A stretch of 41,896 nucleotides of DNA from Psammoneis japonica (GCA_008632985.1 QPGO01000008.1:124001-165896), one strand, 5' to 3'. Shown: positions 1-20,350, counted from the first letter of the stretch. The notes: a model not told the origin generated them from the letters alone. Numbers and translations: made by a program.

Positions 1-322
1 TGAGGCGGCAGGCAAGGAGCTCGTCATGTGTGAACAAAGAGGAGTCGTTGGCAACGTCAAGACCTTTGTGTGCTTTGACAATGCACAGACTGACTGGTGC
101 TGCTAACATGTTCTCACAACCACGGGGCAAAGGGATTGCATCAGTGCCGTTGTCGCACTCAAGCGAGTCGATTTGGGACGGCATGAACGTGAACAGTTCC
201 TGACATGAGTCCGTGCCGTCTTGGGCCAAAGCCAAACGAAGAGGACTCCCAGCACCTTGGGCAAGCACGGTTCCAACCACGTGCTTGAAACCATCGGTTT
301 GTTGCTGACGAGTGAGAACCAT
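1..322 (-). CDS. N-terminus of copia gag-pol (partial, open to window edge, TpA-mutated)
   Basis: Manual translation: MVLTRQQQTDGFKHVVGTVLAQGAGSPLRLALAQDGTDSCQELFTFMPSQIDSLECDNGTDAIPLPRGCENML..., 107 codons without a stop. Resembles diatom CoDi gag N-termini (F.HV...VL....SPL..AL...IDxLxY). Not in the supplied ORF track. Confidence 0.75.
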   Translation of the reverse strand, partial: MVLTRQQQTDGFKHVVGTVLAQGAGSPLRLALAQDGTDSCQELFTFMPSQIDSLECDNGTDAIPLPRGCENMLAAPVSLCIVKAHKGLDVANDSSLFTHDELLACRL

Positions 323-900
323 GGCAGACAAAAATGGTGTCAGGACAATCAATTCTGGTTGGGAAGCGAAGGCAGACTCGAAACTTGGGTGAGAGTGGAC
401 TTGACTTGAAATGGACTTGACTTGAAATCTTGAACTATCTTAAAATCAGAAGTCGCCGGGCTTTGTTATCCCGTTCGTTGTCAAGTGCTAAACTTCCCAT
501 CCGGTCCGCCAGAGTTGTGCCGGCACGTCCGAACCCGCAGCCAGCGGCGCTTTGGGTTGCTTGCGAGCGGAGCAGCGGGTTGCAAACCCCTGCAGGCAAG
601 CTGACCAGAGGTGGACAAGACCCCCGAACCGTTCTTATTTTATGTCGGTTGGATTTCCCGATTGGGCTGGCCAGTTGACGCAGGCGCCAGGCACTGTGGA
701 CGAACGAACAAACGCGGGAAAGCACCCTCGCCCCAACGCAGGCTGCAATCACGGCTGCTTGCTCTCACAGTCATCCTCGTGGACCTAGTAGAACTGTAGA
801 GCACCAGCAGTCCGGGGTAGATCAGGTGCAATGGACTCGGTGTGCTTGTAGAGTGGTGGCAAAACCGCAGTCCGAAGAGTGGGTACAGGTTCTTGGCCGT

Positions 901-928
901 GAAGACATGTATATATATATATGTCTTC
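901..928. repeat. (AT)n-centred near-perfect palindrome in the retrotransposon leader
   Basis: GAAGACATGTATATATATATATGTCTTC. Confidence 0.85.
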
Positions 929-1250
929 AGCGACGAAGATCCTTGAATATGTAGGGTTCTTGACCGTTAACCGATGAACAGGTATATCAAGGGATGAGGA
1001 TCAAGGATAGGCTTGGATATGACCGTTGAATGTATGTCTTCAGCGATCAAAGGTAGTATAATCAATCCAGATATCCAGCGGTAAGGAGACTTGACGGTGA
1101 CGTTAACTTCCTGCCGATGCCCTGGTATTGAATGCGCGTAGACTTGCCGATGTATGTAGAATATATACGGAGGTCCACGTAGAATTAAAAATAGCGTCGT
1201 TGGTAAATCAACGACGACGATGGCGGTTGCTCAATGGGTTGACAATGAGC

Positions 1251-1263
1251 AAGACTGCTAATC
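1251..1263 (-). promoter_or_regulatory. Putative primer-binding site complementary to the tRNA-Ser(GCU) anticodon arm
   Basis: Minus strand reads GATTAGCAGTCTT directly after the LTR's terminal CA. The plus strand GACTGCTAATC equals the canonical Ser-GCU anticodon stem-loop. Confidence 0.65.
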
Positions 1264-1539
1264 TGACAGAAAATGAAGGCAAATGGCAAGAATTCAAACA
1301 ATAACTCCTTACTGCTGTCTAAATAGCAGATGAGTCTCCGCTCAGAGACCGTTACAGGAGCCGAAAGACGTGTGAGTCGGTATAATCGGGCTACTGTTAT
1401 TATTCTTGTGAGCCTTGTGGCTCGAAAGCAAACTACATCGCGCGTGAACGCGCGGAACTAAAGCACACAAAACTGTGCACGGTAAACTAAACAGCGCGCG
1501 ATACTTCGCGCGCACCTAAATCCTGTTCAAATCCTGTCA
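1264..1539 (-). repeat. 5' LTR (276 bp)
   Basis: Begins TGACAG and ends CTGTCA (6-bp terminal inverted repeat). Its outer end coincides with the junction to an older decayed element. The second LTR is outside the window. Confidence 0.7.
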
Positions 1540-3560
1540 GTGTGCTTGCAACAGCAATGCTTTGGCTTCCAAATTTGGCCGCACTTGATTTTGAGTGGCT
1601 CACAACAGCTCCCAAGCTTTGGGTCATTTCTCCTTGGTGTTCTCAAGATTCTTGCTGAGAGCTTGTTCTTGCTGCTTCAACTCAGCTGCGTGATTCAACT
1701 GGAGCTCTCTTGCTTCAACAAGCCTTTGGTGTTGAATTGAATTTCCCTGATCAATCTCCTGAACGTCTGCCACAAGGTTCTCCCATGCTTTTTTTGTTGT
1801 CCCAAGAATGATGTGCAGTGATGCAAGAAGCACCCTGTCAAAATCAACCAGAGTTGGAGGTCGGTTGATCACTGATCCATTTGTCTCAGCAGCTTGCTTC
1901 TGCTTCTTCTTGGTGTTGTGCTTTTGGATGTTGTTGAGTTGTTGCTTTGCCTCAGCTGCCATTTGCAGCTTCATTCCCAAATTCATGTGTCCTTCAATCT
2001 GAGCTGCAAAGCTCTCAGTGAAATGTTGCAGAGAAAGCAGGGAAAGAATGCACTGCAACCCTGTGAACCAAGGGCGATGTTGAGAAATTGAACATTGCCA
2101 CCAAGAACTGTGTGGAGCTCACATGTTTCAAGACTGAGTTCCTCCATGTTTTTCACATTTGACTCTTTCTCAAAAGGTGACATCCAGTGCAGCATTGCAC
2201 GCTTGTTCTTTGTTGACAAATTGAGCAGTGTCTTGTTGTGTCTTCCATGCTGAAAGAGAGTGGCTTGCAAGCACACTCAGAACACACTTTCCCTGGCACC
2301 TTGTCTGTCCTTGCAGAACCTTTGTGCAACTTTTTTGCTTTCACAAATGTTTTCATCGTGGCAACATGGTGATGTGTCATTTGTTTTCATGTGCCCTTCA
2401 CCACTTTTTGGATTTGCATCCACTTGCTTCCATGCCCACCTGTGCTTGGACTCAATTTCACTGTGCCTTTCTTGCCCGACTGCTCCTCCAGAATTTTCAT
2501 CATTTTGTGTCCCATGTGCTTGAGCACTTTGACGTTGCCTGCACTTTTGAGGTCACTGGCATCAAATGGCTGGCAACACTCCTTTGCAGTGCTGAGGATT
2601 CCTTCCGCATCTTCTTGTGGATCTTGGTCACCAGCTGTGGCATCTGTTGTGGCACGAGGGGTGACAGTTGCAGCAGTTGCTTTGAGGGCAGTGGCGGGCA
2701 TTGCTGCAAATGAAGCACTGGCAGGAGCAGGAGCATTGGGAGCAGTGACGGGAGTTGGGGCAGTGGCAGGAGCAGCAGAGTCAGGAGTGCAACTCGCAAC
2801 ACCTGTCAGCTTGTCATCCTTGAGATGGGCCAGGGCAGGCATGGGCTGAGGGAAGGGCGCGCACAATTTCTTTTCCTCCATGACCAAGGTTTTGACTTCT
2901 CAAGCTTCCTTTGTGCAACCAGCTCTGTGAGTTGCATCTGTCAGCAAATTCATGAAGGCAAGATCTTCCTTCACAATGGGAGCACTTCCTGGTGTTTCTG
3001 CAGTGTCTCCACAATCAGAGAAGTTGTGTGCCAGTGACGCCGTCACACAGTGCACATTCCCAAGCGGGAGTCGACAACATGAGTTGAAAGGACACTTGTG
3101 CTTGTCAATTTTTGAGAGCCATGCCTTCTTGCACATCCACTCAAAGTTGACCACAGAAATGCCCAACTGCCAAAAGAATGTCTTCTCTCCTTCTTCTTGA
3201 CACTTGGTGTTGGAAGCCAGCCACCATCTTTTTGCCCAGAACAAATGCATGAAGCAGGTCTGGGTCTTGCGCACAACATGCCAGTGTGCATGCAGGTGAT
3301 TTTTGATGTCTTGTTCAGTCAATGTCTCCCTTTCACTCTGCAAGTGGCAAGTGCAGCAATGTTTCAGCACAACATGTTTTGGACACATTGGTCAACAATG
3401 AGGTCAAAGCAACACATTGTCAGTTTTGATGCAAGAACACAAGCAACAACATTTTTGCCAACAAACGGCGACTTGCATTTTTTGTTCAGTTGCTTTTGCA
3501 CATTTTTTGCACTTGGCCTGTTGGAGGCAGATCTGAAATTTCATCCCAAAAAAAGAAGAA
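1540..3560 (-). pseudogene. Decayed Transib/RAG1-like (CMC-type) DDE transposase, interrupted by the copia insertion
   Basis: ORFs 3388-2900, 2887-2387 and 2380-2153 are one frame broken by TGA. Downstream motifs GGNVQFLNIALGSQGCSAFFPCFLC (D....LG.....+PC..C) and LVDFDRVLLASLHIILG (LH..LG). Confidence 0.6.
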
Positions 3561-4149
3561 AGGAGGCATTTTTCAGTGCTGCCACAGTGGAGTCTGCATG
3601 GAGATGACGTCACAGTGCAAAACACCATTTCCATGCTGCGGTGTGTGCTCTGCAAGCACGTCGTGGGCTGGGGGGTTGGGCCGGGGGCAAGAGAGTGCAG
3701 GGGGGAGCTTGCAAGCAGGGGCAGAAGGGAGGGCCAGGTGCAGGAGAGGCTTCAAAGGGGGGGGGGGGGGGGGCAAGGGACACAAGAGAGGATGGAGGAG
3801 GAGGATCAAGTGGTCAGAGGGCAGCATTGCTGCAGTGTTTGAACACCTTGGGAAGTCACTGGGGCTGGTGTGAGGTGGCTCACACATGTGCAAGCAAGTC
3901 ACTTGTGCTTCTGGCAGTGGGGCTGGGTGAGCTCCATGATGAGGAAGGGGACAGCAGAGGCAGAGGCAGCAACAGAGTGGCACCCTGTGCTGCCTGCAGA
4001 TGCTGGGAGGTGGAGGAGGAGGGGGGCATGGCAAAATGGGTTGACACTCCCCCTTCCCCTTCCAACATGATGTTCGATGCCAGCACTGAAGTGCCTTCCT
4101 GCAACACCTCACCCAGTCTGGGTTAAAGTCAAAACACATGTCTGAAACC

Positions 4150-4860
4150 AGCAGGGGCAGGATGGAGAGAAGGCAGCACAGGAGCAGCAGAGGGAGCTCT
4201 TGGTTCATGCGCCACCCCAGGTGAGAGGAAAAGCAGTCAAGGTTGGTGCAGAAGGTTGTTGCTTTCTGAGCAAGGAAGGTGTCAAGGAAGGATGCAGCTT
4301 GGCAGAGGAGGGTGGCAGCACTGACTTGAGGCGGGTTGGGTGAGGGGCTGGCACCTGTGATGGATGCAAGGATGCAAGTTTGGGAGCAGCTCAGATGGAC
4401 ACTGTGTGGCCAGTTGATGGCAAAGCAATGCTGGCAGCAGAGGGAGTCTGGAACTTCTTGGTTGCTTGAGGACAATGCTGGGGACAAGAAGGGTGGAGAA
4501 ACAGGAAGGGGGCAATGAGCAGCCTTCAGAAAAACATTCAGGCTTGGGGAAGGACTGCCAAGAACTCACAGGGTTGTGTCGCCACAAGGCATTGGGGGCA
4601 TCACAGCACAAGATGAAGATGGGGAGGAGGCACCTGAGTCAGGGGGCAAGTGCTTCTCAGCGCATGTCCCAAGAGCATTCTCACCAAAAAAATTTTGAGG
4701 TCAAGGGTGGGGTCAACACGAGCAGGAACATCTTTGTTGAGGCATCACTTGACACTGGCAAGTGCAATGTGGACAAGGCAGTTGGGGCTGCCTTTGATGC
4801 CAGCACCAAATTGTTCATCAGGGATGAGGCATTGAGTGAGGGCAGAGGTGCTGTGGCACT
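4150..4860 (-). pseudogene. Decayed non-LTR retrotransposon reverse transcriptase fragment (CRE/Ambal-like)
   Basis: Manual translation QFGAGIKGSPNCLVHIALASVK*CLNKDVPARVDPTLDLK (about 4813-4695), then SWQSFPKPECFSEGCSLPP, corresponding to the RT G..QG.PLSP motif. The YxDD segment was not found. Confidence 0.6.
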
Positions 4861-5859
4861 TGGCTGAGCCGCATTGTCAAAAAAATGTTGGGAGCACACA
4901 CAGCACATTGTGTTGTCATGCACCCTTGCTTCATGTTTCCACATCACCATTTGGAGCACTGTGTCACACCCGCTCTCCATGATGAGTCTGCACATCATCA
5001 ACAGCTTGCCACTGTGCACACTTTGCACACCTGGGTTGCAACGCAGATGATGTGCCAGGGTCACACACAGGCAGTGAGTTCAGCCACAGTGTCCAAAAAA
5101 TGACATGACCCTCTCCAAGGCAGTCAATGCAAAACACACCAGAGGCGTGCCAATCACATGATGGTTGGTTGTGTTGCCCCATCAATGCCACCACAGCCTT
5201 GTGCCACCCAACCGATGTTTTGTCAAGCTCAACACAGAAGTGTGCCATGCCCCCATTGAAGTTGTTTCACTCAATTTTGTCCAAGAGTGAATGAGTGCCA
5301 AATTTTCACTTTGTCAGTCATCACCAACACACACACACACCCTTGAGCATCATGTGGTTGTGCGTTCTGCTCATTTCACCTCATGAGTTGCAACAATGTG
5401 GAAACACAGTGTGTGTCTCTTTTTGTTGCTTCCTTGCAGCTTCATTGTCTTTCTTGCAGCTGAGCTGCCACTTTGGCATCAGTTGCAATGAAAACTTTTG
5501 GGCATTTGCAAGAAATGCACTCATGCTCAAACTCTGCTTTTGCTCCTTGCTGCACAGGTTTTCAGCTCAAACAATGTGGCAGCACTGCTTGTTTGTGACT
5601 GCTCAGGATGTGGCTGAACTGCGGTGCTCTGAGATTCAAAACCAACGTGCAGGAGCCCAGCCAGGTTCTCATTTTTGTTGGGCATCATTTTTTGTGTTTT
5701 TCCAAGATTTTGAGATCAGGTGGCATGCACGTGCCCATTTTTGTGTGAACAATGAGATTCTTTTGAAAATGACCCGTGACACAAAACGCATGAATTGCTT
5801 TGGGATGTCCTCAGAATCTGCACCTTTTTGCACCAAAATTGTTGTCTTCTCAAAACTTG

Positions 5860-5963
5860 TGCAAAAAAGCACTTGACTGCTGCCAGATCAGGTGCATTTC
5901 TGCAAACAGCTGTGTTGTTCTAAAGTGCACCTGACCAGTTTGCAGTCAAGTCCATTTTTTGCA
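5860..5963. repeat. Imperfect inverted repeat / hairpin
   Basis: TGCAAAAAAGCACTTGACTGC..TCAGGTGCATTT pairs with AAAGTGCACCTGA..GCAGTCAAGTCCATTTTTTGCA. Confidence 0.75.
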
Positions 5964-6489
5964 GAATTGACAATTCAATGTTTTTCTTGGTGCAGATCCA
6001 CGCAGTTTCTGCACATTTGCCAACAACAACTCCACAGCTTGAAAGATTGCCATTGACGAAAATTTTGTGATGCATTCATTGCAATGGGGATGGCTGGCAT
6101 CACTCTGCAGAAATTTCTTTGTTGATTTTTTCTGCAGCTGCTGGCTGGCAGCATGACGGGGCAAAAAATTTGCGTTGCTGCCATGTGCTGGCAAGGGGTG
6201 GTGGGACAATGCCGCTGCAATTTTCCAGCTAAAAAAACAAACAAATCTGCAGTGCAACAACCAATGCACAAAATCACATGGCATTGCTCCTCCTCCTGCC
6301 ATGATGTGACCAACTCATTTGCAGGTGAAGCATGGCAAAATGAGCGCATTGCTGCACATGTTGGGCAACTGTTTGGATGTGCTCCATTGCAAAAGATGTG
6401 CAAACCTGCAATGTGATGTGTTCTTGGCTGCATGCTTGATTTGAACATTGTCAAAGTGTTGTTGTGTCCTGCCACATTTTGGCTCTTGC

Positions 6490-9137
6490 ACGCACGGAGC
6501 ATCAAACACATGAGCAACACAACCGTCAACCCTCCTTGGCTTGTCAAATTCTGGCAGTGCAATGTCACTCAGAGCCACCCAGTGACCCGACTGGAAAGGA
6601 CCTGCTGCGGTTTGAAAAGCTCACACTCCACATTCATCAACGGATGGTGTGGCCCCACGAGGTAAAACTCGAGAAGATGTCACAGTGTGAGAGCCACCAG
6701 AATCAAATGGTGCACTCATCACACAATTCAACTCATGACATTGGATTGATTTGGCAACCAGCAGCGCAGATGGGACCAGCGTGGCATGCGAAACTTGCAA
6801 ACCCATTGTGGGGAGAGGAGTGTTGTGTTCAAATGCATCTTGATTGAATGCACCCCCCTCTTCATTCATGCAATTTTCTGCAGCATCTTCAAATTCAACA
6901 GGCAACAATTCATCAGGATTTTCAAAACAATCAAAGGCAAAACTTTCAGGCACATTTTCAGGCATGGCACAATCATTTTCAACAAGTGCTTCACATGCAG
7001 GCAATTGAGATCATTCAGCTCCAGAGCACTGAGCTTCTTCTTCTCAGAACTGCCAAGAAAACTGCCCATCTGGCTGAAACCTCACCACACCTCCACAACG
7101 TGGAGGGCCTCATCCGACCATGTCTGAATGGTGCACATCACCACAAGGAGCTTCTCAAGCCTGGTTGTTGTTCACATGTTGTCTGCTTGAGCAGCACAAC
7201 CATCGGCCTGACCTTGACCACCACAGTTGTTGTCATCATTGCAACTGTGCTGGCCACCACCTTGGTTGCCATTGTTGTTCTGATTTCCATTGTTGTTGTT
7301 GTCACAATTGTTGCAACAGGTGCCATGACCTCCTTGGTTTTGGTTGCCATGACCACCAAAGTGTCCACCACCATCACGGCCAGGACCCTGGCCTCCTCAG
7401 AAGCGACCTCTGCCTCAACCTCCACTGCCACGACCACCACCTCAACCACCACAGATTTGAGGTCCACGACAGTCAGGGTCATTTGGATCATCACAGCACT
7501 GGCCCCATGTGTGTCTTCAATGATGCCACAGAACCGGGCATGGATCACTGGCCTTGGGTTGACCCTTGTTGGCCTTCTTGTCTCAGTTGCCTTTCTTGTC
7601 ACTGGAGTTCCCTCCATTGCTGTTGTTGGACTTGCATTTCTTGCTGTCTTGACCATCAGCAAACACTTTCTTGGTGCTCACATGCAGGCTTGAATGTCCG
7701 CCATGGAATCTGCAACAAGGCTCTTGCCCACACGAATTGGGGCTGCTGCCAGGTGAAGGGAAAGGTGCGGAAGACAATGTTTTTCTGCTCCTGCTCTGTG
7801 AGTTCAGGAACAGTTCCAGGCAAGCAGTTGGCACAACCAAATGAAGTTTCCGTGCGATCAACGTGAGTTTCAGATTCTGCCAAGTGAGGTTTTTTGCAAC
7901 AAGGCAAATGAATCTTCACGGCATGTCACGAGCTGTTGGCTTCACATGGTGTGAACAGCAGGCCGCAACAGCTTGATTAAACCGAGCCACCATCCTCTGA
8001 TTCTGTTGGATGCCCGCCATGATGTTCTGCCGTTTTGCCTCTGCAGCACCTTGCAGGCGATCCTCAAAAGCATCAAAGAGTTCCAGACGCTTTCCAGCTC
8101 TGGGTGGGACCTCGTGCTGCTGAACTGTGGCACAATTGTTTTTTGTCATCCGTTGCATGTTTCGCATGTGCATTTCTGCGTGTTCTGTTATAAAATCATG
8201 TTCCACACTGCCTGTTTTGCAAAGCCAAAGGCTTTCTGTTGTCCACATCATTTGTGACAACAAAAATGCGCTGGGCATGTTCTTTGATGTCTGAAGAACA
8301 CACCCGGGTGCACTGAAAAGAATGCACTTCAAGTGTGGGGGAGAAGATGCATTCGCAAAATTGCCTCTTTTTCTGTTGGCGATCATTCACACATCCATTG
8401 CTTGACAATTTTGCTGCGGAGCTCGCACGTGGACGGGCCCAATGTCACAAAAAGTCCCACCTGGGACTGGAGCCCGTCTCCATTCTGATGGCGCCACAGC
8501 CCAGCCGTCTTGCCACCTTCCAAAAACGGTCCTCCATGTGCAACAGCGATTCAACTCCATGTTCTCCTGTGAAAATGGGACACATTTTTGAGAGAGTTTG
8601 GTTCCATCATCAAAGGTTTGAGTGAGCTTCACTTTTTGCAATTCAGAGTCCACAAATTTGGTTTCACGCTCAATGCGCACTTTCTCCAAACCTTCTTGAT
8701 GCATGATGATGAACAACCTCAGCAATCAAAGAATCAACAATCCACAAAACAAGTGAAACAAGGTGTTCCCAATTGGTCCACACAAGAACAAGAACAATCA
8801 ACAGCCAAACAACAACAAATTCGAGTGTGGCAACACAAGCTTCAAGTTCAAACAAGCACTGCTCCAAATCGCCAATTTCACAAGTGCAGCTGGGCTGAGG
8901 TTCCGATTGACCTCCAATGAAATTTTCTGCACACGAGCACACAGACAACATTTCTCTCTTTTCAACAGCACTCTGCGCGTTGTCATGAAACAGATGACAC
9001 AATGAACAATGAGCAAGCCATGACAACGACTGCAGTTGCAGTGCAAGATCTGGCTTGAGATGACTTGACAAAACAGGTTGTGAGAGAACCAAGAAGGGAA
9101 CCGATCAGCGCAGTCGCTGATCAAAACTGACTTCTAA
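6490..9137 (-). mobile_element. Truncated Ty3/Gypsy LTR retrotransposon (gag plus aspartic protease), decayed
   Basis: gag from ATG 8704 (MHQEGLEKVRIERETKF...), LPGTVPELTEQEQKNIVFRTFP, CP...HTWGQC knuckle and RGG/N-rich tail. Protease FDSGGSHT at about 6700 and LPEFDK..VDGCVAHVFDAPC at about 6560-6495, after which homology stops. Confidence 0.75.
8086..8478. mobile_element. 393-bp MITE with about 25-bp imperfect TIRs and a 4-bp TSD, inserted in the Gypsy gag
   Basis: TCCA|GACGCTTTCCAGCTCTGGGTGGGAC ... GTCCCACCTGGGACTGGAGCCCGTC|TCCA. Removing it restores the gag frame (GAIRM-ELFDAFEDRLQG). Confidence 0.8.
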
Positions 9138-9170
9138 CAGCCTCTTGAATGTCCAATGCATCAGTTTTAA

Positions 9171-9660
9171 GGTGGTGCGGGTGCAAAAGTGGGCCAGATT
9201 CTACGCACGCAGAGCTTAGCATGTTTTCTACACAAATCGCCAAAGTCGGCTCGCCAACTTGATTCCTCTCCAGGACGATGGAAACTGGGACATTTCACAT
9301 GACAAAGTGTTTTGACCACTTGATTGCACTCCCCTCGACTTGCTCATGAAGAGAAGTTACAAGTTTCCACAGGTTTCTTGTTTTGCACAGCTCTTTGAAA
9401 CTCGAACGTCTTGATTTTGGCACCTTTCTGATTAGATTCGTTGCACATCCTCAGAAACCTGTGAAAACTTGTAACTTCTCTCCCCAAACAAGTCAAGGAG
9501 AGTGCAGTTGAGCAGTCAAAACACTTTGTCATGTGAAATGTCCAAGTTTCCATCGTCCGGGAGAGGGTTCAAGTTGGCGAGCCGACTTTGGCGATTTGTG
9601 TGGAAAACATGCTAAGCTCTGCGTGCGCAGAATCTGGCCCACTTTTGCACCCGCACCACC
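9171..9660. mobile_element. 490-bp MITE with about 210-bp TIRs, Kolobok-like (TTAA target, GG..CC termini)
   Basis: 9171-~9378 is the reverse complement of ~9453-9660. Flanks are TTAA (9167-9170) and TTGA (9661-9664). Confidence 0.9.
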
Positions 9661-11172
9661 TTGAGTGGGCGTGCCAGAGTTTTCGGCCTGTTCACTTTCT
9701 ACGTGGCCTGGTGCAACCCAAATCTGTGTAGATTCAGCACATTTCGCCCTGCAGAACAGTTTTTGGGAGTGTTTTCTGGCTCGCGGCTCAAAATGACACG
9801 CAAAACAACACGGACAATGGCGTTTCACCGATTTGAAAAATGCGATCGTCTCTGAGGTTGGAACCTGTGTGCTCTCAACAGAATCTGGTGCATCACATCA
9901 TAAGACACGAGACAAGCTTGAGAATGCCCAGGTTCACATGGGTGGATCATGGTGTAATTTTGACCTGAAGATTGGTGTTGATGCCGCCGCTTTTGTTGCA
10001 TCAACACGCAACTCATGCATCGTCATTCATGCTGTGCATTTCGTTGAGCACTCATGCGTTCAAATTCTTTCAACTTACATGTGTGTTGTCTTTCCTCATT
10101 GTTGTTTTGTTCTGCAGGGTCTCCCTTGCCATGAGCCATCCCTGAGAGAGAAATGCTTGCTTTGAATGTCACTTCTGCCTTGCAACGGCCACGGCAGTCT
10201 GACGACAAGTCCACGTCACAGACACAGCATCAGGATGACTCAACGACAAACAAAGAAGCTTGGGTCTGTGGTGTCTGAAGATGTTCAAGCTCTCAACAGC
10301 TCAGATTTGTCGTCGAGCAATTTTGCCGCGCATTTGACGTGCATCCAGAAGGTGATGCGGAGTTTTGTTCGACAGAGAAACGCACCGCGGCAATTGTGAA
10401 GGGGTGGATTGTTTCTTTGTTCTACAAGGCAGTTTACAAACTGGAAATGTGTGACTCACTTGCCTGCATTGTCAGCCAATGCAATGAATTTTGAGGGTGA
10501 AAGCTGGTGCACCGTGCACAAACAGCGAACCAAGCCTCAAAAGCACAGCAGGCCAGAAGCTGGAGAGTTTGCGCCAACAGGAAGAACTGGCTTTGCTGTT
10601 TGTCATGGGACAGTAGATTTTATTTCATTGGGGTGACAAGTCTCCATTGCTGTTCTAGAGTGACTGGCATTGGTTTGGCCGTTGCAGCCTTCATGCATGC
10701 CCGCCTCTTGACAATCTGTTTTGTTCTGAGATTGTGCAATGAAAAAGCCTTTGTTTGCAACATTCCATCACAAGAGAGAGCTTATGAGCTTTACTTGGCC
10801 CTTTGAAGTGATCAGGCAAGTGAAAGAGGAGCCAACAGAAAGACACTAACGACGACAACGAACGACGCCATTTTGATGCACTGTCGTCTGGTGGTACAGT
10901 GTCGTTGATGGAGTGCCGTGCTTTCTGTTTTGTACTGCTTCTGTGTAGGAATGTACGTGCTTGGCAGAGCGATCGATCGAGGGCACACTCGGTCATAGAG
11001 TACATGTGCCTATCTCATTCAAGATCTTGCATCTTCTCTGGAGTTTCAAGGGGCATATATAATTCCTAAGCTTCTGGTCAATTATAGTGACCCCAATGAC
11101 TTCGGAGGGGTCACATTTTGGAGGGAAAGCGCAGGCGACATCTTGACTCGATTTTAACGATCAAGTCACAAC

Positions 11173-14028
11173 ATGGCGAGTAGTTCAGAGTCAGACACAC
11201 TGAGAGTGATGACCCCGTCTCCAATACGTCGACGAAGCTTCCTTTTTGTCGTGTTTGTGTCAATATCATCGGCGAAAGATAGCAGTTCCTGCATTGCTAA
11301 ATACGGGAGCAATGAGCTCTTGTGTAGCGAAACGTCTTCAGAATGCAAATTTGCAGTTAACCTGGGTGGCGAGAGCTGTGCTGGATTTTGTGAAAAACAT
11401 GGAGGGCGATGCATCACTGCTGAATCGGGTGGAAGCACAAGTTGCAAGAGCTGGGGAACGAATTCTTGTTCTAGTGGATATAATGACAATATCTGCATCT
11501 GCTCACTTGAAGGTGTCCAGGTAATCGAACAACCTATTGAAGTAGCGACAGCAACCACTCTACCGTCATGTATCGAGCAGTATGGCACAAATGACTTACT
11601 ATGCGACGAAACGCCACAGAATTGTGCCCTGTCTGTTATTTTGAAGGGACGAACTTGTAGTGACTTCTGCAGAAAACATGGAGGAACATGTATTGAAGCG
11701 CGGGCGGTATCAGGTGGTTCCTGCAGAGTATATGGAACGAATTCATGCAATACGCCTTATGGCGACAACTACTGCGTCTGCACAAGAAGTAGATTTCCAT
11801 CAGCAACGCCCATGCGGCCGTCAATAAGTCCACCGACCAAGAAACAAACTTCAATGTCTTTATCTACAACGTCACCAACGCAATCTCCGTCCGCTCGACC
11901 AACAAAGCTAACCACCAAGAAGCCTACCTCTGAACCAACACCTTTCCCGACAAAAATACCGACCCAAAGGCCATCTAGGCCCCCAACAAAAGCCCCGACA
12001 GCATCTCCGTCCAAAAGCCCGACACGATCTCCGTCGATTGGACCAACAAAGCAGCCTACCGCTGGTCCAACAGCAACTCTGACTGATATGCCAACACAAA
12101 AGCCAACGCCATCCCCGACGTCTAGGCCGACGATGTGGCCTACCACACCACCATCCCCTTCTCCGACTGATTCACCGACGTCTTTCCCTACTCAAGTCCC
12201 TACGGAGCTTCCAACAAGCATGTTAACTGATTCTCCATCTTCTCTGCCAACGCAGAGACCCACTCCTACTCCGACGCTATCACCTACATCTTCACCCTTG
12301 AGCCCATACCCAACCAAGGCCCCAACAATCTCACCAACCCCAGCTGTTCGTGGGGTTCATTCCACCAATTCTACAACTTTAACTCAATACGATGCAGCGA
12401 TTTGTGGAAAGTGTTTTCGCAATGGGTGTTTCGATGAAGTTACATCGATAAATGAGCAGAAATGCGGAAAGTTTGAGTGTGCCACGAGGTAAGTCTGGAT
12501 TCTTATTTTCCGAGCCCCCGAAGAATACCCTGTTTTATCTATTTAGATTCTCTGTCAACGTTTCGTCAGGATAACCTGTCCTCGCTATCAGTCAGAGTTA
12601 GCATTAAGCGACAAAAGAACAAGCCCACCACAAAGGGCAAACATGCCAGGCAGTGCTAAGACGGCAACACCAACCGCATCTCCGACCCCCATCCTACGCG
12701 GAACTGGCCTTGAATGCAGCCAAGACAAGGATTGTGAGTCAAACACATGTCGAAACGGTGCGTGTATGGCGTCCCCAGATTGCTATCCAGTCAAGCACGA
12801 CTACGGAACGATGTTCGGCAAGAATACGATCAATCTGGTATTTGTTGCTTCGGGATTTGACACGGCTGATCACGATATTTGGATATCCCAAGTGAGGAAG
12901 ACCTATGACTACATGAAAGGCTACGAAATGTTTGCTGAGCAGAATAAGGAGCTGAACGTTTTTCTTGTAGACCCGCCTCAACTGAATCCTTCGTTCTGTG
13001 CAATGAATTGTGCGGGGATCGAACGAATGTTGTGTTGCAGTGCTTTTCAGGCACAGCGACTCTCGAGCAAGTGTTTACCAGATGGAGCTAATCTTCAAAC
13101 GATCGTGATTCATCATGTTGATCAGTATGGAGGAGCAGGCTACACCGAAGAGAACATGGCAACCATGTCAACACATCCACTAGGTCCAGAGATCATGGTT
13201 CATGAGTTAGGTCACTCTTTATTTGAATTGGCTGATGAGTACTCGTACGGGTCTGGAACAGAGCTGGACCCCAACTGTGCGGCAACCAGTGACTGCTCGA
13301 AATGGGCTGACCTTATTGGACGTAAAATCGAAGGCTACAATCAAGTGTCCTGCAGTCCCGGTTGTAGCGACGATGGATACTACGTGGGCGAGCAATCTTA
13401 CATGAGCGTCTTGACCAAGGATGTCGGGGCTGTGAATACTCGATACACTTGTTGTACCTATCTTGCATTGACGAAAAAGTTCCCTTCATACTGTCAAGCC
13501 TTTGATTTCGAGCCAGACTACTTGATAAACTTCTGCGAGAGCAACGATTACCAGAATTATGGCAAATCCAATTACAACGAGAAACCAAAGCTCTCCATTA
13601 GTACCGGAAAGGCGTTCAAGGACAAATCCAAGTACATGTACGTGTCAGAGCCTCTGTTGGTGGATGTGCGCCTGAATCACAAGAAGGGGCGCGCCGTTGT
13701 GGCAAGCATGCCTGTGTCGGGAGCACCTGGTTTGTACCGAAAGAAACGGGTGATAGGAGACTACAAACGAACTTCTCAGGCCAAGGCAGCTGGGCTTGAT
13801 TCGGTGGTAATGGTAAAGGTGACGTATCGCCAAGGCACCCAGCGATTCTTTCTGTCCACGAACACCACCATCGAGGTTCCCTCACACGCATCCGTTGAGG
13901 ATTCGGTGGAGGCGAGGGGAAGAGAACGAACAGCTGTGTCAGAGCAAGCCGAAGTAGTCAATCTTGTTCTTGACGCCAAAGGGCGATCTTTCATGAAAAT
14001 TCAAGCCAAGTATGTGCACATATTATGA
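11173..14028 (+). CDS. Secreted M64-family (IgA peptidase-like) zinc metallopeptidase with two 10-Cys modules and a P/T/S-rich stalk; join(11173..12488,12570..14028), about 924 aa
   Basis: Hydrophobic N-terminal segment. A GT..AG intron joins the two ORFs in frame (CATR|ITCP). Motifs NLVFVASGF, YGGAG and HELGHSLFELADEY. The start could be the second Met. Confidence 0.85.
12489..12569 (+). other. Spliceosomal intron (81 bp)
   Basis: AG|GTAAGT ... TTTCGTCAG|G; removal fuses ORFs 11173 and 12643 in frame. Confidence 0.85.
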
Positions 14029-14859
14029 TCCGAATCATCCTCTTTCATCTCAAGTGCTCTCTAGCTAGCTAGATCTGCTCTATCACTGCTTGTTAACCTT
14101 GGAATTTACTGCCAGTGTGATCATCGTGTCCATTAAACTTTGGCCACTCAGCGTTTCTACCAAGATCGCCAAACGAGAGGAAGACAAAAGAAGACGGACA
14201 AGTTTTGCGGCCCGCAACGTAGGGATGAAGTTTCAGTTTCAGAATTCATTCATTTCGGTTTTAATCTTGCATCTTTCAATCATTCGTTATTCAGTACTTC
14301 GTTCCAGCTTATTCCTACGAATCCCTCGCTCTGACGGCGGGAATATCGTTGATCAACCGGATGGCTTTGGCATTCAGCATTGGCATTCGTTGCGTCGTGC
14401 TCTTTTCAAGCTGAGATCATGATATTTCGCGTTCGATCTTGATCATTTAAAAGTCGTGTGCGAGAAGCGAATACGGTTTTCCATTGATACCCGCCATTGT
14501 AAAACCGAAAATGCATAGGCCTCTTCTTGGCCTCTGCCATCGTAGTTGTTGCAAATTCACTCAAAGCTCAAAGGAAAACATCAGCACATCAAAAATAAAA
14601 CGAAGCCGCAGCATCGCTCCCGCGCGCCAGCGTGCGCATCAAACAGCTTTGCCCAATGGTGCATTCCTACGGTACGTTCAAATTTGGAGATTTTGCTGTG
14701 ATCATGAGTCGTCTCGCGAGCTGGCCGGCCTTCATTCATTATTTGAGTTCAATAGGAATCTGAATCATTCGGGTCCTGAGAGTCAGCACGTAGAAATTGT
14801 GTTGGAGAGTACTAAAAATAATTATTATCAGTCTGTCCATCCGTCCATATACGAATGTC

Positions 14860-14971
14860 AACTTCTCGGGAAATCAATTGAAATGCCATCTGATTGACGG
14901 TGTTTTGATTCACATGGTGAAGGCCAATGCCGTCAATCAGATAGCATTTCAATTCAGGTTCCCGAAAAGTT
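14860..14971. repeat. About 41-bp imperfect inverted repeat with a 29-nt spacer at the left edge of a transposon block
   Basis: AACTTCTCGGGAAATCAATTGAAATGCCATCTGATTGACGG / CCGTCAATCAGATAGCATTTCAATTCAGGTTCCCGAAAAGTT. Confidence 0.85.
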
Positions 14972-15074
14972 ATTAGCTCTAATCACTCTCTCGTGTGACA
15001 TTGTGTACATTTCTACTCGATTTTGTGTTTTTCCTTGTGTGAAATGTCAATTGTGACCCACGCGACATTTTCAA

Positions 15075-18000
15075 ATGATTCCTGTTGCTCCGAATGAGAA
15101 TCTTGTGTCGACACACCACGCGTTTTTGCCGTGCTTTGAGTTTTTTCGTCTCCCGCCAACAGAGATGATGTTGCACTCATCAAGGCGGTGTCTTGGTGCC
15201 TCAGTGAAATCGTCAAATGATGCGGGGCAATGCTCTTCACCCGCCAACGAAACTGCTGTTGCATTTGTTGATGATTCTGCTGAAAAATGGGACCATGACA
15301 GCTGCCAGAGAAACTTGGTCAGTTTCTTTTGTTGTTGCCGTGATGCACCGGCGTGGTGGCATGAAGTCATTTTGCGACCCAATTCCAAGTCTGACTCAGG
15401 TGTCTCCCATGTCTTTCAAGTTTGCGCTTGGCTTGTCTGACAGCTCCTGTGAAAAGCTTTTGACGAACAGTGGTTTGTTGAAGGTGAGCGCGGCTTTGAC
15501 CAAGGAAATTGACAGAAAAGCATGGGGCACATTCAAGGTGTTATTTGACGTTGACATTGAACTCAACAGGGTCTCCTTGAGACAGAGAGACCATCAAGTG
15601 TGGGTCATCAGGGTCGGATCTTTTGTTCCTTGGGCCGAAAAATGTCCTGTGTGTCAGGCCAGGTCGACACGCAAATGGAAAATTTGCAAAAGGCTTCACG
15701 GCGAAGCTTCAGGCCAACAAAGTGTGCAGCAGGAAGCTGCAACAGAAACAACTCGGGATTGCCAAGGTGCAAGAGGAGCTTGCTTGCACCCACATTGTGC
15801 TGAATGAAAATGAGCCCACTCATGAGAAACAAAAGACTGTTGATGACAAGGCAGCCTCTGGGTCCACGGCACCTGATGAATCGCCAACCAGCACATTGTG
15901 TGACATCACTCAATGACAAACAAACATTGACAACAGCATTGACAATGAGTTGGAACCTTGTGCTGGATGGAAAATGTCAGGAAAAGACAACACCATTGTT
16001 TCAGTGTCTGTGAAAGAATGGGTGCAGAGCAGCTCCATGCCCCATGCTGTTGCAGTCGGAGACACCACACCAATTGCCTCTTGCTTTCATTCGATTGAAG
16101 GTGCCAAGGATTTGTGTCTCTTGGTTGATTTGGACAATGGACACAACCCACGGCCAAAATCATGCAGCTGCTGGAAGCCTGAGTCCGTCAAATTGCAGCT
16201 GTGCACCCCCTTCTCTGATGCGCGATTGACTGTGTCTCGCATTTGGCAACAATGCAAGAGGGCCATGTCAAAGGAAGTGTCTTCAAAAAAGTGTCTCAAA
16301 CCTGATCACTTGGACATTGTCCCAAGTGAGGTTGCACATGGCAGCATTCAGCAGCTGTGGACCAACCTCAGCAACTCTAAGAAATGGGAGCATCGGCTGC
16401 GAGAACGAATGGTGGTGATGAAGAATTGGTCACTCAAATGTGACGGGCAGCTTGATGGCACTCTCCCTGCCCAAAGAAAAGATGCGTCAATCCTGAAGAC
16501 CATCGTGCATCATGCAGAGCCAGTTGCAGCAGAAATGTGTGGCAAAGACTCCGCTGAACACCATGCCTTCACCATGCACTTGCAGTTCTTAAATGGAGAG
16601 CTCACGGATTCAAAGGGAAACCATGTTAGAACAATGCAGTGCTCCACCCTGATCAATTTCCATGCACTTGCTGCACTTTGTGATTGCAGAAAGGATGTTC
16701 ACAACACTTTGTCAAAGGTGTCGTGCCTTCCAGATTGATGGAATGTTGAACGTTTTGCCAAGGACAAGTTTGGAAATGAACGAGACAATGGCGTGCTGAA
16801 TGGGAACGTTGATGCTCTTGCTGTGGAGATGCAAAAGGCAGGCTGTGCCAAAGCTGCAATTGCTTTTGACAGCATGACCATGTGGAAGGGAAGGATTCTT
16901 GACAACCAAGAAGATTGCAAAGATGAGCTCTCACAGGTGCAATGATGCCGGAGCAGCTTTCCGTTGCAAAGTTGGAGTTTGAAGCACATGTCTGGAATCT
17001 AGCTGATGGAGTCAAAGGCAGCAATTTGGATGAAACTGTGTCATTGTTAAAGCTCAAGAACTCAGAACATTCTGTTGAGTCTGAAAGTTGAGGCGAAAGT
17101 CATGACAGCATGCTGCAATGCAAAGACCTTGACAGCTGCAGATGTGTGTGCCCAGTTGGATGAATCGAACATGGCACTGAAGCATCACGGTTTGTCCGCT
17201 GCTTTGGAGGTGTCCGATTCAGCAGAAGCAAATGATGCAGCAGCAAACACAAGGTGTGAAGCATCCGCCAAAGAAATGCTCCCACGGGATCTTTTGAAAG
17301 CACACAGCTTGGATGGGAACTTCCTCATCACACACAAGGATGTGGTCATGAAAGATTGCGTGGTGTGCACAAATGACATGCCACATGTTTTGAAACAAAT
17401 GGGGAGTGCAATGGACTCATGAGAACTGGCTTGTGGCTGACTTCAACTTCATCCAATGTCAGTGCCTGTTTTGGGAGATGTGCACAGCAGTCTTGCTGGT
17501 GGCAGATTTGGTCTGCAGGTGCACAAGAAGTGGCCCCCCACATGATTTTCAAAAGCAGAGCAACCGTGACAAAATGAAAGTGAAAAGAGCAGCAAAAATG
17601 CCAAGTGGCAGCATGGTCAAATGCATTGACAAAGTGCGCAACTGAGCTGAAATGGAATTGGCAGGATTGTCAGCAAGAATGGCAGAGGAGAGGAAGGCAT
17701 TCTGCGGACCCATCTGCAGCCATGTCTTCACCATGAATTGTTGGTTTGATGCTGGCAACTCTTGTGACACAAAAGGCAAGCACAATTTCTTGGTTTGTGT
17801 GACTCGGGCCAATGCAAGAAGCACTCAAGATGTGTTCTTAGAGTTGCTTGTCACACGTGAAGATTGGATGTGAAACTTGACAAACAACAAGGGAGAGTTC
17901 GACAAAGAGAGATTCACACCCATGGAGCTGATGGCCAGCATGCAAAGGGTGTTTTGTGGCTTTGCAGCTCTTGTCCAAAAGATTGTTGTGGAAGAGAATG

Positions 18001-18230
18001 GGGTGCTTCTCTTGCGTGACTTAAACCAAGACATTTGTGAGCACCATTTTGCTCACACACAAGCTTCTTGCAGTTGGCACAACAATCCCGACCAATCCGG
18101 TGCCATCTTTTCTGATTTTGCATCTACAGCCAAACAAGTTTGTGCAATGTCTGACCACACCAATGTGTCTAAAAGTGCAAGGGAGCACTTCAATTGCAAG
18201 TTGTCAGCACAAGCGCAGTTCTGGTTGCTG
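15075..18230 (+). pseudogene. Decayed P-element/THAP9-like transposase
   Basis: Ordered motifs IAFDSM (~16860), SDSAEAN (~17215), NDMPHVLK (~17375), DKMKVKRAAK (~17570) and RDLNQDICEHHF (~18015-18050) match the P-type FDEM / D...N / D.PH..K / KMKV..A / LNQD..E..F pattern. Broken by TGA stops and frameshifts. Confidence 0.75.
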
Positions 18231-18420
18231 CGCTGCATTGTTTGCTCCTGCACACGTTCGTCGTTCGGACGATTTTTGATGTGAAAGATCAAGCTGTCCA
18301 ACCCCGGTGGCAATGATGCTCTCTCCTTGCAACAATGCATTTAGCTCCATTTTGGCTGTGTTGCTGTTGCTTTCTCCTGGACAAATGATTTTGACCAGCT
18401 GCATCTTTCGGACGACAATT

Positions 18421-19710: not shown

Positions 19711-20350
19711 TTTCTTCGCCAAATGAATCATCCTGGGCATGGCAGTGTCAGCTGCTGACATCATTGTGAGTGGCAAATGACTCTGGATCAACAACACTTG
19801 AATCGACAAACAACAGGGCAGCGTGGTGTTTTTGTTTGTGCAATCTTATTGCTGGTCGAGGGGAAGTTGCAATCTTGTTGCTGGTCGAGGGGAAATGCCT
19901 CGAGCACGACACTGTGCGTGCCTTTTTTTGAAGTCTGTGCGTCACACACGCGTGATCACAGTACCGGTACAGCACAATCGCCAACGAAGTCTGTCCGTGC
20001 CTCACCTGGTCCGGAGGAATGCACCATTGCTTTTTGCCTCGCGCTCGAACCATTTTCGATTTGACATTGCGTGTGTCGGAGGGAATTTGGCCAATTTCGA
20101 AATTTCAAATAGGACTACAGTACTGTATAATAATTGCGGTCATTCACGAATTATTCTGCATGACCAGACATTTCCGACAATCGCAAAGCAAAATGACTAT
20201 GTCCAATGAATCCTTGCTCACACAACATTTAGGCCCAAGACTTCATGATGATTCGCATCGTTTAGCGGTCCATTGGTTTACGCAGTCCTCAAGCGTTTTA
20301 CATCTTTTTCCAGATATAGTGACTCGTCGTAACAGAGAAAAAGCGTATCC

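Follow-up and report, generated by a model that had tools for sequence, protein, structure and literature searches.

The window analysed here is a 41,896-nucleotide stretch of the Psammoneis japonica assembly (GCA_008632985.1, QPGO01000008.1:124001-165896). It carries two gene regions, which served as controls, together with blocks in which the dinucleotide TpA is scarce or nearly absent, partly erased flanks and a high-depth repeat (Table 1).

Table 1. Features of the window, with observed/expected (O/E) dinucleotide ratios or counts.
Feature	Coordinates	Strand	Evidence
TpA-poor block, cut by the left end of the window	1..435		2 TA against 26 expected in 1-440; CpG O/E 0.71; TG 1.63; CA 1.42
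High-depth repeat between two erased blocks, normal TpA and CpG	436..1539		Composition, contig depth
Main TpA-erased block	1518..9134		TpA 0.014, CpG 0.25, TG 1.67, CA 1.95
Partly erased flank	9135..10950		TpA O/E 0.20, CpG 0.64; holds a ~500-bp palindrome (9169-9662)
Control gene region	11001..15000		TpA 0.60, CpG 0.92; Peptidase_M64-like and PT-repeat ORFs
Second TpA-erased block	15015..19846		TpA 0.04, CpG 0.39
Control gene region with long internal repeats	20200..36400		TpA 0.66, CpG 0.94; subtilase and DUF1995 genes
Third TpA-erased block	36505..38416		TpA 0.04, CpG 0.13
Partly erased flank of the third block, CpG near normal	38417..39300		17 TA listed
Aminotransferase class-III-like ORF, 528 codons, within the fourth block	39901..41484	+	39 homologues
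Fourth TpA-poor block, running past the right end of the window	39965..41896		TpA 0.11, CpG 0.23

Dinucleotide counts in 1518-9134 revealed 7 TpA where 495 were expected (O/E 0.014; TpA frequency 7/7616 = 0.0009); were TpA used as in genes, a count this low or lower would arise with a probability of 1.7e-124. The corresponding counts were 14 against 330 in 15015-19846, 5 against 129 in 36505-38416, 16 against 143 in 39965-41896 and 2 against 26 in 1-440. A first-pass annotation, made from the sequence, had described TpA as nearly absent in blocks and, by eye, as lacking from 1540 to about 4120. Both statements held: O/E is 0.014-0.11 in the four blocks from 1518 rightward, and a 2607-base run between 1517 and 4124 contains no TA at all. 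The third block has a TA-free run of 1287 bases, from 37130 to 38417. Block borders are abrupt, for example at 1517/1518. The normal TpA ascribed to genes and intergenic DNA was also found, with TA O/E of 0.60 and 0.66 in the two gene regions and up to 1.06-1.35 in some intergenic 500-bp windows.

TG and CA, called abundant in the earlier annotation, are raised to O/E 1.67-1.96 in the blocks from 1518 rightward (values for 1-440 in Table 1), and CpG is depleted together with TpA in the same four blocks (O/E 0.13-0.39). The combined deficit of TA and CG in 1518-9134 (832) is close to the combined excess of TG and CA (767), as it is in the other blocks (484/448, 219/196 and 204/188). All remaining dinucleotides lie at O/E 0.80-1.32 in the blocks; AA is slightly raised (1.15-1.28), AG shows no excess (0.95-1.17) and TC no depletion (0.96-1.08). 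GC content is 0.46-0.49 in the blocks compared to 0.47-0.50 in genes. The count of TG is about that of CA on the + strand, in agreement with the first-pass reading of a regional, roughly strand-symmetric mutational change of TA to TG or CA. The ratio TA/(TG+CA) is 0.0041 in 1518-9134 and 0.28 in genes, suggesting that the rate at which TpA is destroyed would be at least ~245-fold above that of the back-transition. Low CpG combined with normal TpA occurred in none of 166 windows of the composition scan, whereas TpA below 0.2 with CpG of at least 0.5 occurred in 15; windows across 38501-39500 have TA O/E of 0.16-0.28 and CpG of 1.07-0.76. About 40% of the analysed stretch is altered: nearly all of its TpA, and most of its CpG, is now TpG or CpA.

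Because a change of TA to TG or CA removes TAA and TAG and never creates an in-frame stop, Tyr-free ORFs crowd all frames of the blocks. The six frames of 1518-9134 contain 9 TAA and 2 TAG compared to 395 TGA. ORFs of at least 70 aa occur at 7.2-7.8 per kb in three of the blocks and at 4.2-4.8 in genes, and six-frame Tyr content is 0.02-0.04% in blocks versus 2.2-2.3% in genes, so the loss of these stops and the dense Tyr-free ORFs claimed before were both confirmed. The assignment of the blocks to copia, Gypsy, non-LTR, Transib-like, P-like and MITE elements was not: none of 142 block ORFs (≥70 aa) matched reverse transcriptase, integrase, RNase H or transposase families at E≤0.01. A stop-read-through scan of the three + strand frames of 16801-19802 returned no families, no homologues were found for ORF 2390-3391(-) of the main block, and those of ORFs 18424-19380(-) and 15917-16735(+) of the second block were absent or marginal. 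Neither TE nor viral homology of the blocks, parts of which are repeated, emerged from the ORF, read-through and homologue searches; the affected DNA includes one cellular-type aminotransferase-like gene.

Contig depth was compared across the stretch and showed that erasure is independent of sequence repetition. The repeat 436-1539 has the highest summed contig depth of the window (~99,000-134,000, compared to 64-190 in gene bins), without a family in Rfam or a match in Pfam, and keeps 58 TA against 65 expected (0.89) and a CpG O/E of 1.09 over 441-1517; it is either a counter-example or a young insertion. Gene-internal repeats in 20200-36400, 81-91% identical over 425-1531 bp, keep normal TpA. 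Bins 2002-5336 and 15342-20000 are at or near gene-bin depth, and bins inside 5337-9338 reach 467 to 44,081. The second block has a depth of 120-240, and other contigs link 15864 to 18359 and 15987 to 19798, suggesting that deletion-bearing copies of it exist elsewhere. The first-pass label "transposon-targeted" is therefore not supported, since no TE enzyme domains were found, erased bins lie near gene depth and the highest-depth repeat is normal. Defence against transposons is likewise not borne out, because the highest-depth and gene-internal repeats are untouched and a cellular-type aminotransferase-like gene is hit. The claim that the substrate is chromosomal DNA and not retro-copies alone was upheld: unannotatable single-copy DNA, moderately repeated DNA and the aminotransferase-like gene are all affected, and in that gene both TA>TG and TA>CA would have taken place.

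The loss of TpA is not an assembly artefact. K-mer contigs at a depth of 57-62 from X1, the only sequencing run containing the stretch, match 1513-5959 as one unbranched path with a single letter different; X1 may be the source sample of the assembly, so its chemistry is not independent. The arms of the palindrome 9169-9662 are 85.7% alike and differ by TG/CA doublets at 4 of 244 columns, compared to 2 of 3262 in the gene-internal repeats. Among the 40 best-supported differences that separate the window from other contigs, 24 fall at YR steps; at 7 of these 24 the alternative copy would have TA, and at 15 it has CG. CpG is an equally good source for these TG/CA doublets and for most of the between-copy differences listed.

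The aminotransferase-like ORF, the only block ORF with homologues (best 49% identity across 87% of the ORF), was used to polarise the change. Cys, Cys and His stand at its three conserved Tyr columns, as expected from the first-pass claim that conserved Tyr reads as Cys or His. In this comparison the share of Tyr is 1.1% versus 2.3%, and that of Cys and His 4.0% versus 2.8%. Across 230 conserved columns, single-step replacements total 34, of which 8 are TA>TG/CA and 5 other A:T>G:C transitions; TpA is estimated to hold only ~1/6 of the A/T bases. The inferred TA changes are 6 TA>TG and 2 TA>CA. Relatives at 35 environmental loci have ordinary TA O/E (0.36-0.79), with 1-kb windows never below 0.19. 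Judged by this comparison, which covers one ORF and small counts (3 Tyr columns; 8 versus 5 transitions), the loss of TpA appears as a derived change, shown by Tyr giving way to Cys or His while relatives keep normal TpA.

Among the TA that survive, a 5' T or 3' A is present at 37 of the 43 left in strongly erased blocks; the figure falls to 24 of 42 where erasure is partial and to 292 of 824 in genes (p=3.5e-11), which shows that TTA/TAA sites are the last to convert.

We propose that the blocks are probably chromosomal DNA that has passed through locally targeted, TpA-specific A:T-to-G:C hypermutation, plus CpG decay. That a targeted mutator acts on TpA at the DNA level is, in our judgement, likely; an ADAT/TadA-type adenine deaminase as its agent is a tentative suggestion. 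At each palindromic TpA, a change of the A would give TpG, or else a change of the A on the opposite strand would be read as CpA, with conversion continuing until TpA is almost gone. Within the same blocks, methylated CpG would have decayed to TpG/CpA in the ordinary way. The target DNA may be silenced and cytosine-methylated, and the agent would be an enzyme working on DNA, for which an ADAT2/TadA-like adenine deaminase is the foremost candidate. A34, the natural tRNA target of ADAT2/TadA, is preceded by U33. No HxE-PCxxC nuclear deaminase gene was found within the window.

Sequence alone cannot tell A>G from T>C at a palindromic TpA, where TG is about equal to CA. A TET/JBP-type dioxygenase could mark T at TpA in silenced DNA as 5hmU or 5fU, and the modified base, by mispairing with G or through error-prone repair, would give T>C, which at TpA looks like A>G on the opposite strand. 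5-Formyluracil and 5hmU both promote T>C mutation. Dinoflagellate 5hmU is described as favouring T in TA and TC and silencing transposable elements (PMC11572971), yet TC is undepleted in the blocks (0.96-1.08), and we consider this thymine-first route unlikely. Less likely still is ADAR-like A-to-I hyper-editing of double-stranded transcripts, reverse-transcribed into DNA by retroelements. Its preference for a 5' U would fit TpA (10.64898/2026.01.13.699255), and the blocks are partly repeated. However, none of the 142 ORFs carries a reverse transcriptase or other retroelement domain, bins of single-copy-like depth and the aminotransferase-like gene are erased, and 7.6 kb is nearly wholly erased, non-coding parts included. 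A retro-copy would also carry edits of one strand, whereas TA>TG and TA>CA occur within one ORF and are balanced overall.

An error-prone polymerase of the Pol-eta type, which the first-pass annotation had named as a candidate, would make A:T mutations during repair synthesis in silenced chromatin. The A>G errors of Pol eta fall on WA motifs, TA among them. WA also covers AA, which such a mutator should deplete; since AA O/E is 1.15-1.28 and AG 0.95-1.17, the dinucleotide counts suggest that an AA>AG component is absent and that the signature is strictly TpA, and we regard this source as highly improbable. About as implausible as the ADAR route is an explanation without targeting, in which TpA and CpG mutation bias is genome-wide, the blocks represent ancient DNA free of constraint that has reached mutational equilibrium, and selection holds TpA elsewhere. 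The blocks do lack recognisable function or homology, and genes are likewise below 1 (TpA 0.60-0.66). Against this, a forward/back rate of at least ~245-fold exceeds what weak selection could hold at synonymous and intergenic sites, intergenic TpA reaches 1.35, the repeat 436-1539 (0.89) adjoins erased DNA and block borders are abrupt. The genome-wide spectrum of Bigelowiella natans, moreover, is reported as AT-biased, with hypermutation in certain regions only (10.64898/2026.01.13.699255). A technical origin, with base modification or library chemistry turning TA into TG/CA reads, could be entertained because a single run of unrecorded library type, possibly the source of the assembly, contains the stretch. 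Strand-dependent misreading would yield clashing TG and CA reads at each site, but the ~60-depth contigs form one unbranched path matching 1513-5959; flanking genes on the same molecule are normal, and Tyr>Cys/His, stop loss and between-copy TG/CA doublets fit fixed mutations. We give this origin very little credence.

The proposed TpA hypermutation resembles fungal RIP, likewise a regional hypermutation by transitions that has the look of genome defence, peppers DNA with changes and inactivates its genes. The changes of RIP, however, are C>T, chiefly at CpA; it creates TpA, raises AT content and needs duplicated sequence. It was rejected here: TpA is destroyed, GC content is 0.46-0.49 versus 0.47-0.50 in genes, gene repeats of 81-91% identity are untouched and the single-copy-like bins 2002-5336 are erased. 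Decay of methylated CpG in silenced transposable elements is alike in that the CpG O/E of 0.13-0.39 and the gain of TG/CA in the blocks are what 5mC deamination gives; in diatoms, TE methylation is reported to depend on DNMT5a (PMC9998398). Alone it was also rejected: in the main block it can supply no more than 344 of the 767 additional TG+CA, and it accounts for none of the 488 TpA that are lacking. The loss of TpA is deeper and occurs also where CpG is near normal (15 windows). Since TpA is the most depleted dinucleotide, 5mC-driven CpG decay can be a companion only. ADAT2/ADAT3-TadA and ADAR share A-to-I conversion, read as G, with a preferred 5' U/T. In their known roles they act on RNA; DNA activity of amphioxus ADAT2 has been reported, as cited in 10.64898/2026.01.13.699255. 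Dinoflagellate 5hmU resembles the present case in preferring TA and in marking and silencing transposable elements, but is a modification and not a fixed mutation, and also favours TC (PMC11572971).

The process has been reported once before, in an unrelated alga, contrary to the first-pass view that it had not been described. A 2026 bioRxiv preprint (Mettrop et al. 2026, 10.64898/2026.01.13.699255) describes how TpA in integrated NCLDV and virophage DNA of B. natans is hypermutated to TpG/CpA and proposes an ADAT2-like deaminase. De novo TpA>TpG/CpA changes arose there in mutation-accumulation lines at ~6e-7 per site per generation, ~1000-fold over background; the DNA hit in B. natans is foreign, coming from integrated viruses and transposable elements, and TpA-depleted CDS are enriched in RT and DDE domains. 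In both cases TpA is exclusively lost and TG/CA gained on both strands, the change is limited to particular blocks of nuclear DNA (here genes are at 0.60-0.66 and the adjoining repeat at 0.89), ORFs are TpA-free and unannotatable (mean TpA frequency 0.0018 in B. natans low-TpA CDS, 0.0009 in the main block) and ADAT2-like adenine deamination is a candidate mechanism. By analogy, we infer that the same kind of process operated in both. The cases differ in host, B. natans being a chlorarachniophyte and the window apparently from a diatom-like stramenopile, and therefore the P. japonica window probably represents a second lineage for TpA hypermutation. Activity in B. natans is ongoing in the lines, whereas the process in the window is known from its sequence; no viral or TE homology was detected in the blocks of the window. 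Hypermutation in B. natans comprises only 124 clusters in ~95 Mb, with a Rho TpA of 0.45 in the NCLDV region, whereas erasure is near saturation over ~40% of the window. CpG is co-depleted and TTA/TAA context resistant here; the preprint does not mention CpG, and its text reports no such context. What the window adds to the B. natans case is near-saturated erasure, coincident CpG decay and the conversion of TTA/TAA last.

TpA observed/expected (O/E) ratios were scanned in 500-bp windows. The window holds 1011 TpA steps in 41,896 bases, and their distribution is highly uneven, as the table below details. The longest TA-free run covers 2607 bases, from 1517 to 4124, and exactly matches the stretch that the first-pass annotation had judged TpA-free by eye. 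Other stretches free of TA measured 1797, 1315 and 1287 bases. Under gene-like TpA usage, the probability of finding seven or fewer TA steps in the main block (1518-9134) is 1.7e-124. Together the strongly erased blocks make up ~16.7 kb (40% of the window), rising to ~46% when the two partly erased flanks (9135-10950 and 38417-39300) are included.

TpA content and summed contig depth along the window (summed contig depth does not equal copy number, a stated caveat of the tool)
Stretch	Type	TA observed	TA expected	TpA O/E	Summed contig depth
1-440	Erased block	2	26	0.08	
1518-9134	Erased block (main)	7	495	0.014	
15015-19846	Erased block	14	330	0.04	
36505-38416	Erased block	5	129	0.04	
39965-41896	Erased block (fourth)	16	143	0.11	
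1501-9000	500-bp windows			0.00-0.06	
9001-11000	500-bp windows			0.09-0.33	
15001-20000	500-bp windows			0.03-0.12	
36501-38500	500-bp windows			0.00-0.12	
40001-41500	500-bp windows			0.06-0.17	
Gene-bearing parts	500-bp windows			0.36-1.35	
2002-5336	Depth bins				72-91
5337-11339	Depth bins				467-44,081
11340-14674	Depth bins (genes)				64-190
15342-20000	Depth bins				120-240

The other dinucleotides were then compared. TG and CA were raised in the erased blocks (O/E 1.67-1.96), CpG was low (0.25, 0.39, 0.13 and 0.23 in 1518-9134, 15015-19846, 36505-38416 and 39965-41896, respectively), and all remaining dinucleotides lay within 0.80-1.32. The combined deficit of TA and CG approximately equalled the combined excess of TG and CA in each block (832/767 in the main block; 484/448, 219/196 and 204/188 in the others), so the dinucleotide bookkeeping balances. 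AA (O/E 1.15-1.28) and TC (0.96-1.08) were not depleted. On the plus strand TG and CA were nearly equal, with a skew within +/-0.27 that was not significant in 13 of 17 sub-blocks. The conversion to TG/CA is TpA-specific, roughly strand-symmetric and regional, occurs at the DNA level and runs alongside CpG decay. The earlier reading of these blocks as TpA-to-TG/CA hypermutation was correct. The signature is genuine, extreme and of biological significance.

The 166 overlapping 500-bp windows included none that combined CpG O/E below 0.5 with TpA of at least 0.45; CpG decay in the window always has TpA loss alongside. Conversely, 15 windows with TpA below 0.2 kept CpG at 0.5 or more, four of them at 0.75 or more. 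TpA loss is therefore deeper than CpG decay and either faster or wider. Transposable element (TE) CpGs in diatoms are described as methylated via DNMT5a in the available text of PMC9998398. Taken with the CpG decay in the blocks, this suggests that the erased DNA belongs, or once belonged, to methylated, silenced chromatin. The ratio TA/(TG+CA) was 0.0041 in the main block and 0.28 in genes, which would place the TpA-destroying rate at least ~245-fold above the G>A/C>T back rate, at equilibrium or not.

The few surviving TA steps had a distinct context. A 5' T or 3' A flanked 37 of 43 survivors in the strong blocks (10 of them TTAA), 24 of 42 in the partial flanks and 292 of 824 TA steps in genes. 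This enrichment of TTA/TAA among survivors (p=3.5e-11) also exceeded the 49% expected for random TG/CA back-mutations (p=7.6e-7), and six of the seven survivors in 1518-9134 read TAAA or TAAG. The graded share from blocks through flanks to genes suggests that conversion is slower at TTA/TAA sites, a testable property of the mutating agent.

The coding consequences were marked. The six frames of the main block contained 9 TAA, 2 TAG and 395 TGA codons, and three blocks carried 7.2-7.8 ORFs of at least 70 aa per kb, compared to 4.2-4.8 in genes (six frames). Tyr made up 0.02-0.04% of six-frame translations in the blocks against 2.2-2.3% in genes, with Cys and His elevated in the blocks. Since TA>TG/CA destroys TAA and TAG and never makes an in-frame stop, open frames in the blocks would be uninformative about function. 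For annotation, such blocks breed dense false ORFs and mask their own origin from homology searches.

One block ORF allowed the polarity of the changes to be assessed. The 528-codon ORF at 39901-41484, in the fourth block, has weak Aminotran_3 matches and 39 homologues, the best 49% identical over 87% of the ORF. It was aligned with 20 of the 39, picked for high coverage. Where at least 60% of the homologues agreed, the window had C, C and H at the three conserved Tyr columns; at the 12 conserved Arg columns it kept R at 10, with H at one and C at one; all Gly (22/22), Asp (9/9) and Phe (7/7) columns were unaltered. A residue was shared by at least 50% of the homologues at 230 columns, of which the window ORF matched 184 and differed at 46, with 34 of the differences explicable by one base change: 6 TA>TG, 2 TA>CA, 3 CG>TG/CA, 5 other A:T>G:C transitions, 5.3 other G:C>A:T transitions and 12.7 transversions. 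We estimate that TpA accounts for ~1/6 of all A+T bases at gene-like usage, so 8 TA>TG/CA against 5 other such transitions amounts to a several-fold excess, on small counts. In 35 environmental loci coding relatives of this ORF, TA O/E was 0.36-0.79 and no 1-kb window fell below 0.19, the lowest values being in three high-GC contigs. The aminotransferase-like family is thus not inherently TpA-poor. A search of viral contigs gave no relatives of the family.

The TE families named in the first-pass annotation were not recovered. Pfam searches of the 142 block ORFs of at least 70 aa (E<=0.01) gave four matches, DUF7481, BCS1_N, MLVIN_C and Aminotran_3, all under curated cut-offs and none a TE enzyme. 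A stop-read-through scan of 16801-19802 in the three plus-strand frames found no families, and the MLVIN_C hint was dropped after it. Searches with 18424-19380(-) returned no homologues and no viral-contig match, and its Atlas look-up no usable match (recognition 1107); 2390-3391(-), with one TGA read through as X, also had no homologues. Against 1.84 billion representatives, 15917-16735(+) had two marginal matches (E 2.4e-5 and 1.3e-4), one coiled-coil-like and neither with a TE or viral domain. Rfam gave no families in the entire window, and self-comparison of the window showed the erased blocks to be mutually dissimilar, with no LTR-like direct repeats or LTR pairs.

Part of the erased DNA is repeated, and part is at single-copy-like depth. 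Several contigs link distant points of the window, such as 15864 to 18359 and 8472 to 15353. Such joints would be expected from copies elsewhere in the genome that carry deletions, suggesting that some of the erased DNA occurs in repeated form and behaves much like transposons. By far the highest summed depth (~99,000-134,000) was at 436-1539, which lies between two erased blocks and has no Rfam or Pfam match, yet its TpA and CpG O/E are 0.89 and 1.09. This stretch could represent a young, very abundant repeat that inserted after erasure, or else one that escapes it. The erased segment 8005-8671 (depth 44,081) is tied to this repeat by the joints 575>8085 and 8427>1263 in other contigs, so that a single abundant family may include both erased and non-erased pieces. 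Gene-internal repeats, 81-91% identical across 0.4-1.5 kb, were also unerased. The untouched 436-1539 repeat, the untouched gene-internal repeats and the erased cellular-type gene argue against a simple rule in which repetition triggers erasure or TEs are its only targets; targeting of transposons, as originally proposed, is not demonstrated in this window.

The genes beside the blocks had features of their own. Three very long uninterrupted ORFs (21520-25191, 27446-30673 and 31144-35724; 1223, 1075 and 1526 codons) have extensive internal repeats and, PT repeats aside, no clear Pfam match. Two of them have a common 1.3-kb segment at 81% identity (28418-29756 and 33688-35020). A Peptidase_S8 (subtilase) match is split over overlapping ORFs in different frames: ORF 20333-21523 carries profile positions 3-221 and ORF 21520-25191 positions 237-288. 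The split could mean that a small intron intervenes, that the frame is shifted or that the assembly is wrong here. The public sequencing run X2 covered almost only the gene region 11183-14198. Contigs of X2 and of another run, X1, skip 93 and 74 bases (13179>13273 and 13891>13966) in a Peptidase_M64-like gene, as would fit short introns if X2, whose type is guessed, is RNA.

Only X1 among the public runs contains the window stretch, and no RNA run is listed with it; X2 and a third run, X3, had no coverage over 2002-6670 or 15342-20000. X1 k-mer contigs at a depth of ~57-62 matched 1513-3773 and 3757-5959 with one and zero differing letters, respectively, and no gaps, and those over the window genes matched equally well. 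A base modification or chemistry-wide artefact that makes TA read as TG/CA is unlikely. X1 may be the assembly's own sample and its library type is unrecorded, but a misread modified base would make reads of the two strands disagree between TG and CA, and X1 gives one clean path. X1 contigs at least 80% like the window showed 1380 transition and 377 transversion differences. Among the best-supported 40 of 1773 differing places, 24 were in YR steps: where the window has TG/CA, the other contig implies CG at 15 and TA at 7, and at 2 places the window itself has CG. This sample is small, tool-selected and mostly points to CpG. A ~500-bp palindrome at 9169-9662, in a partly erased flank, has arms ~84-86% alike (85.7%) and four TG-versus-CA doublets in 244 columns, compared to 0, 2 and 0 in 1507, 1330 and 425 columns of three gene-internal repeat pairs. 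Together, the doublets and YR differences suggest that CpG decay and TpA loss both continued after the copies separated. A second palindrome, at 14860-14971 (~110 bp, 78% alike), lies where depth is raised (4834) and still contains TA; both palindromes may be foldback or MITE-like elements.

The most likely agent is adenine deamination by an ADAT2/TadA-like enzyme, which would act upon silenced DNA. The natural target of such enzymes, A34, comes after U33. DNA activity of amphioxus ADAT2 has been reported, as cited in the available text of a preprint on Bigelowiella natans (bioRxiv 10.64898/2026.01.13.699255). Thymine oxidation at TpA by a TET/JBP enzyme is a live rival. The available text of PMC11572971 describes 5hmU as favouring TA and TC and silencing TEs in dinoflagellates, and at a palindromic step this route leaves the same sequence as the adenine route; TC, however, is untouched in the blocks. 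A deaminase of the TadA/ADAT type was one of two agents named in the first-pass annotation. The other, Pol-eta-type repair, is disfavoured by the undepleted AA. ADAR editing with retro-copying is disfavoured as well, since no RT was found among the 142 block ORFs, both strands are affected and targets include non-retro sequence. The sharp block edges and TA-rich neighbours likewise disfavour an untargeted mutational equilibrium. UV TA-photoproducts and 6mA were dropped, as neither is known to be regional or to yield TA>TG/CA.

The process had been proposed as a new system, but it and the same candidate mechanism are already described in B. natans. According to the available text of that preprint (10.64898/2026.01.13.699255), 231 of 302 nuclear mutations in mutation-accumulation lines fell in an integrated NCLDV and a virophage region; nearly all of these were A>G/T>C and all were at TpA. 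It further reports 324 TpA-depleted CDS enriched in RT and DDE domains, and 124 TpA-low, CpA+TpG-high clusters, and it puts forward an ADAT2-like candidate (version dated 2026-04-14); the words 'CpG' and 'diatom' do not occur in its available text. It was the sole description that our literature search found, and no report of the signature from diatoms or any other stramenopile was retrieved. The erasure is therefore not categorically new, and the window is most likely a second, more saturated instance of the B. natans process in a diatom-like host. The host is probably distinct from B. natans. Its DUF1995 protein lies closest to an Atlas cluster with mostly Bacillariophyta among the known members, a haptophyte cluster coming next; its genes keep ORFs of 1075-1526 codons uninterrupted, unlike the intron-rich genes of B. 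natans; and erased DNA occupies 40% of this window compared to 124 clusters in ~95 Mb of the B. natans genome. Were the host B. natans after all, this would be the published case. Relative to the available text of the preprint, the window adds erasure of CpG along with TpA, a lack of dependence on repetition and a context, TTA/TAA, that resists conversion.

Tentatively, and with rather less than even confidence, both cases might reflect a SAR-wide TpA-editing genome-defence enzyme system, spanning chlorarachniophytes and diatom-like stramenopiles. Here it would be saturating on cytosine-methylated silenced chromatin of any copy number or origin, fast at V-TA-B and slow at TTA/TAA, removing all Tyr codons and TAA/TAG stops from its targets. 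If so, the extended footprint should identify the enzyme. No targeted A:T-to-G:C hypermutation of chromosomal DNA was known before the 2026 preprint on one chlorarachniophyte, and a second case, far more complete and in an apparent diatom, would mean that the process is no one-species curiosity. Among ocean producers diatoms are a dominant group, and they include genetically tractable model species. The link to CpG-methylated DNA, the independence from repetition and the TTA/TAA resistance provide testable handles, and a natural TpA-specific DNA adenine editor would interest the base-editing field. The ~245-fold bound obtained here is comparable in order of magnitude to the 1000-fold excess that, judging from the available text of the preprint, was measured in B. 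natans.
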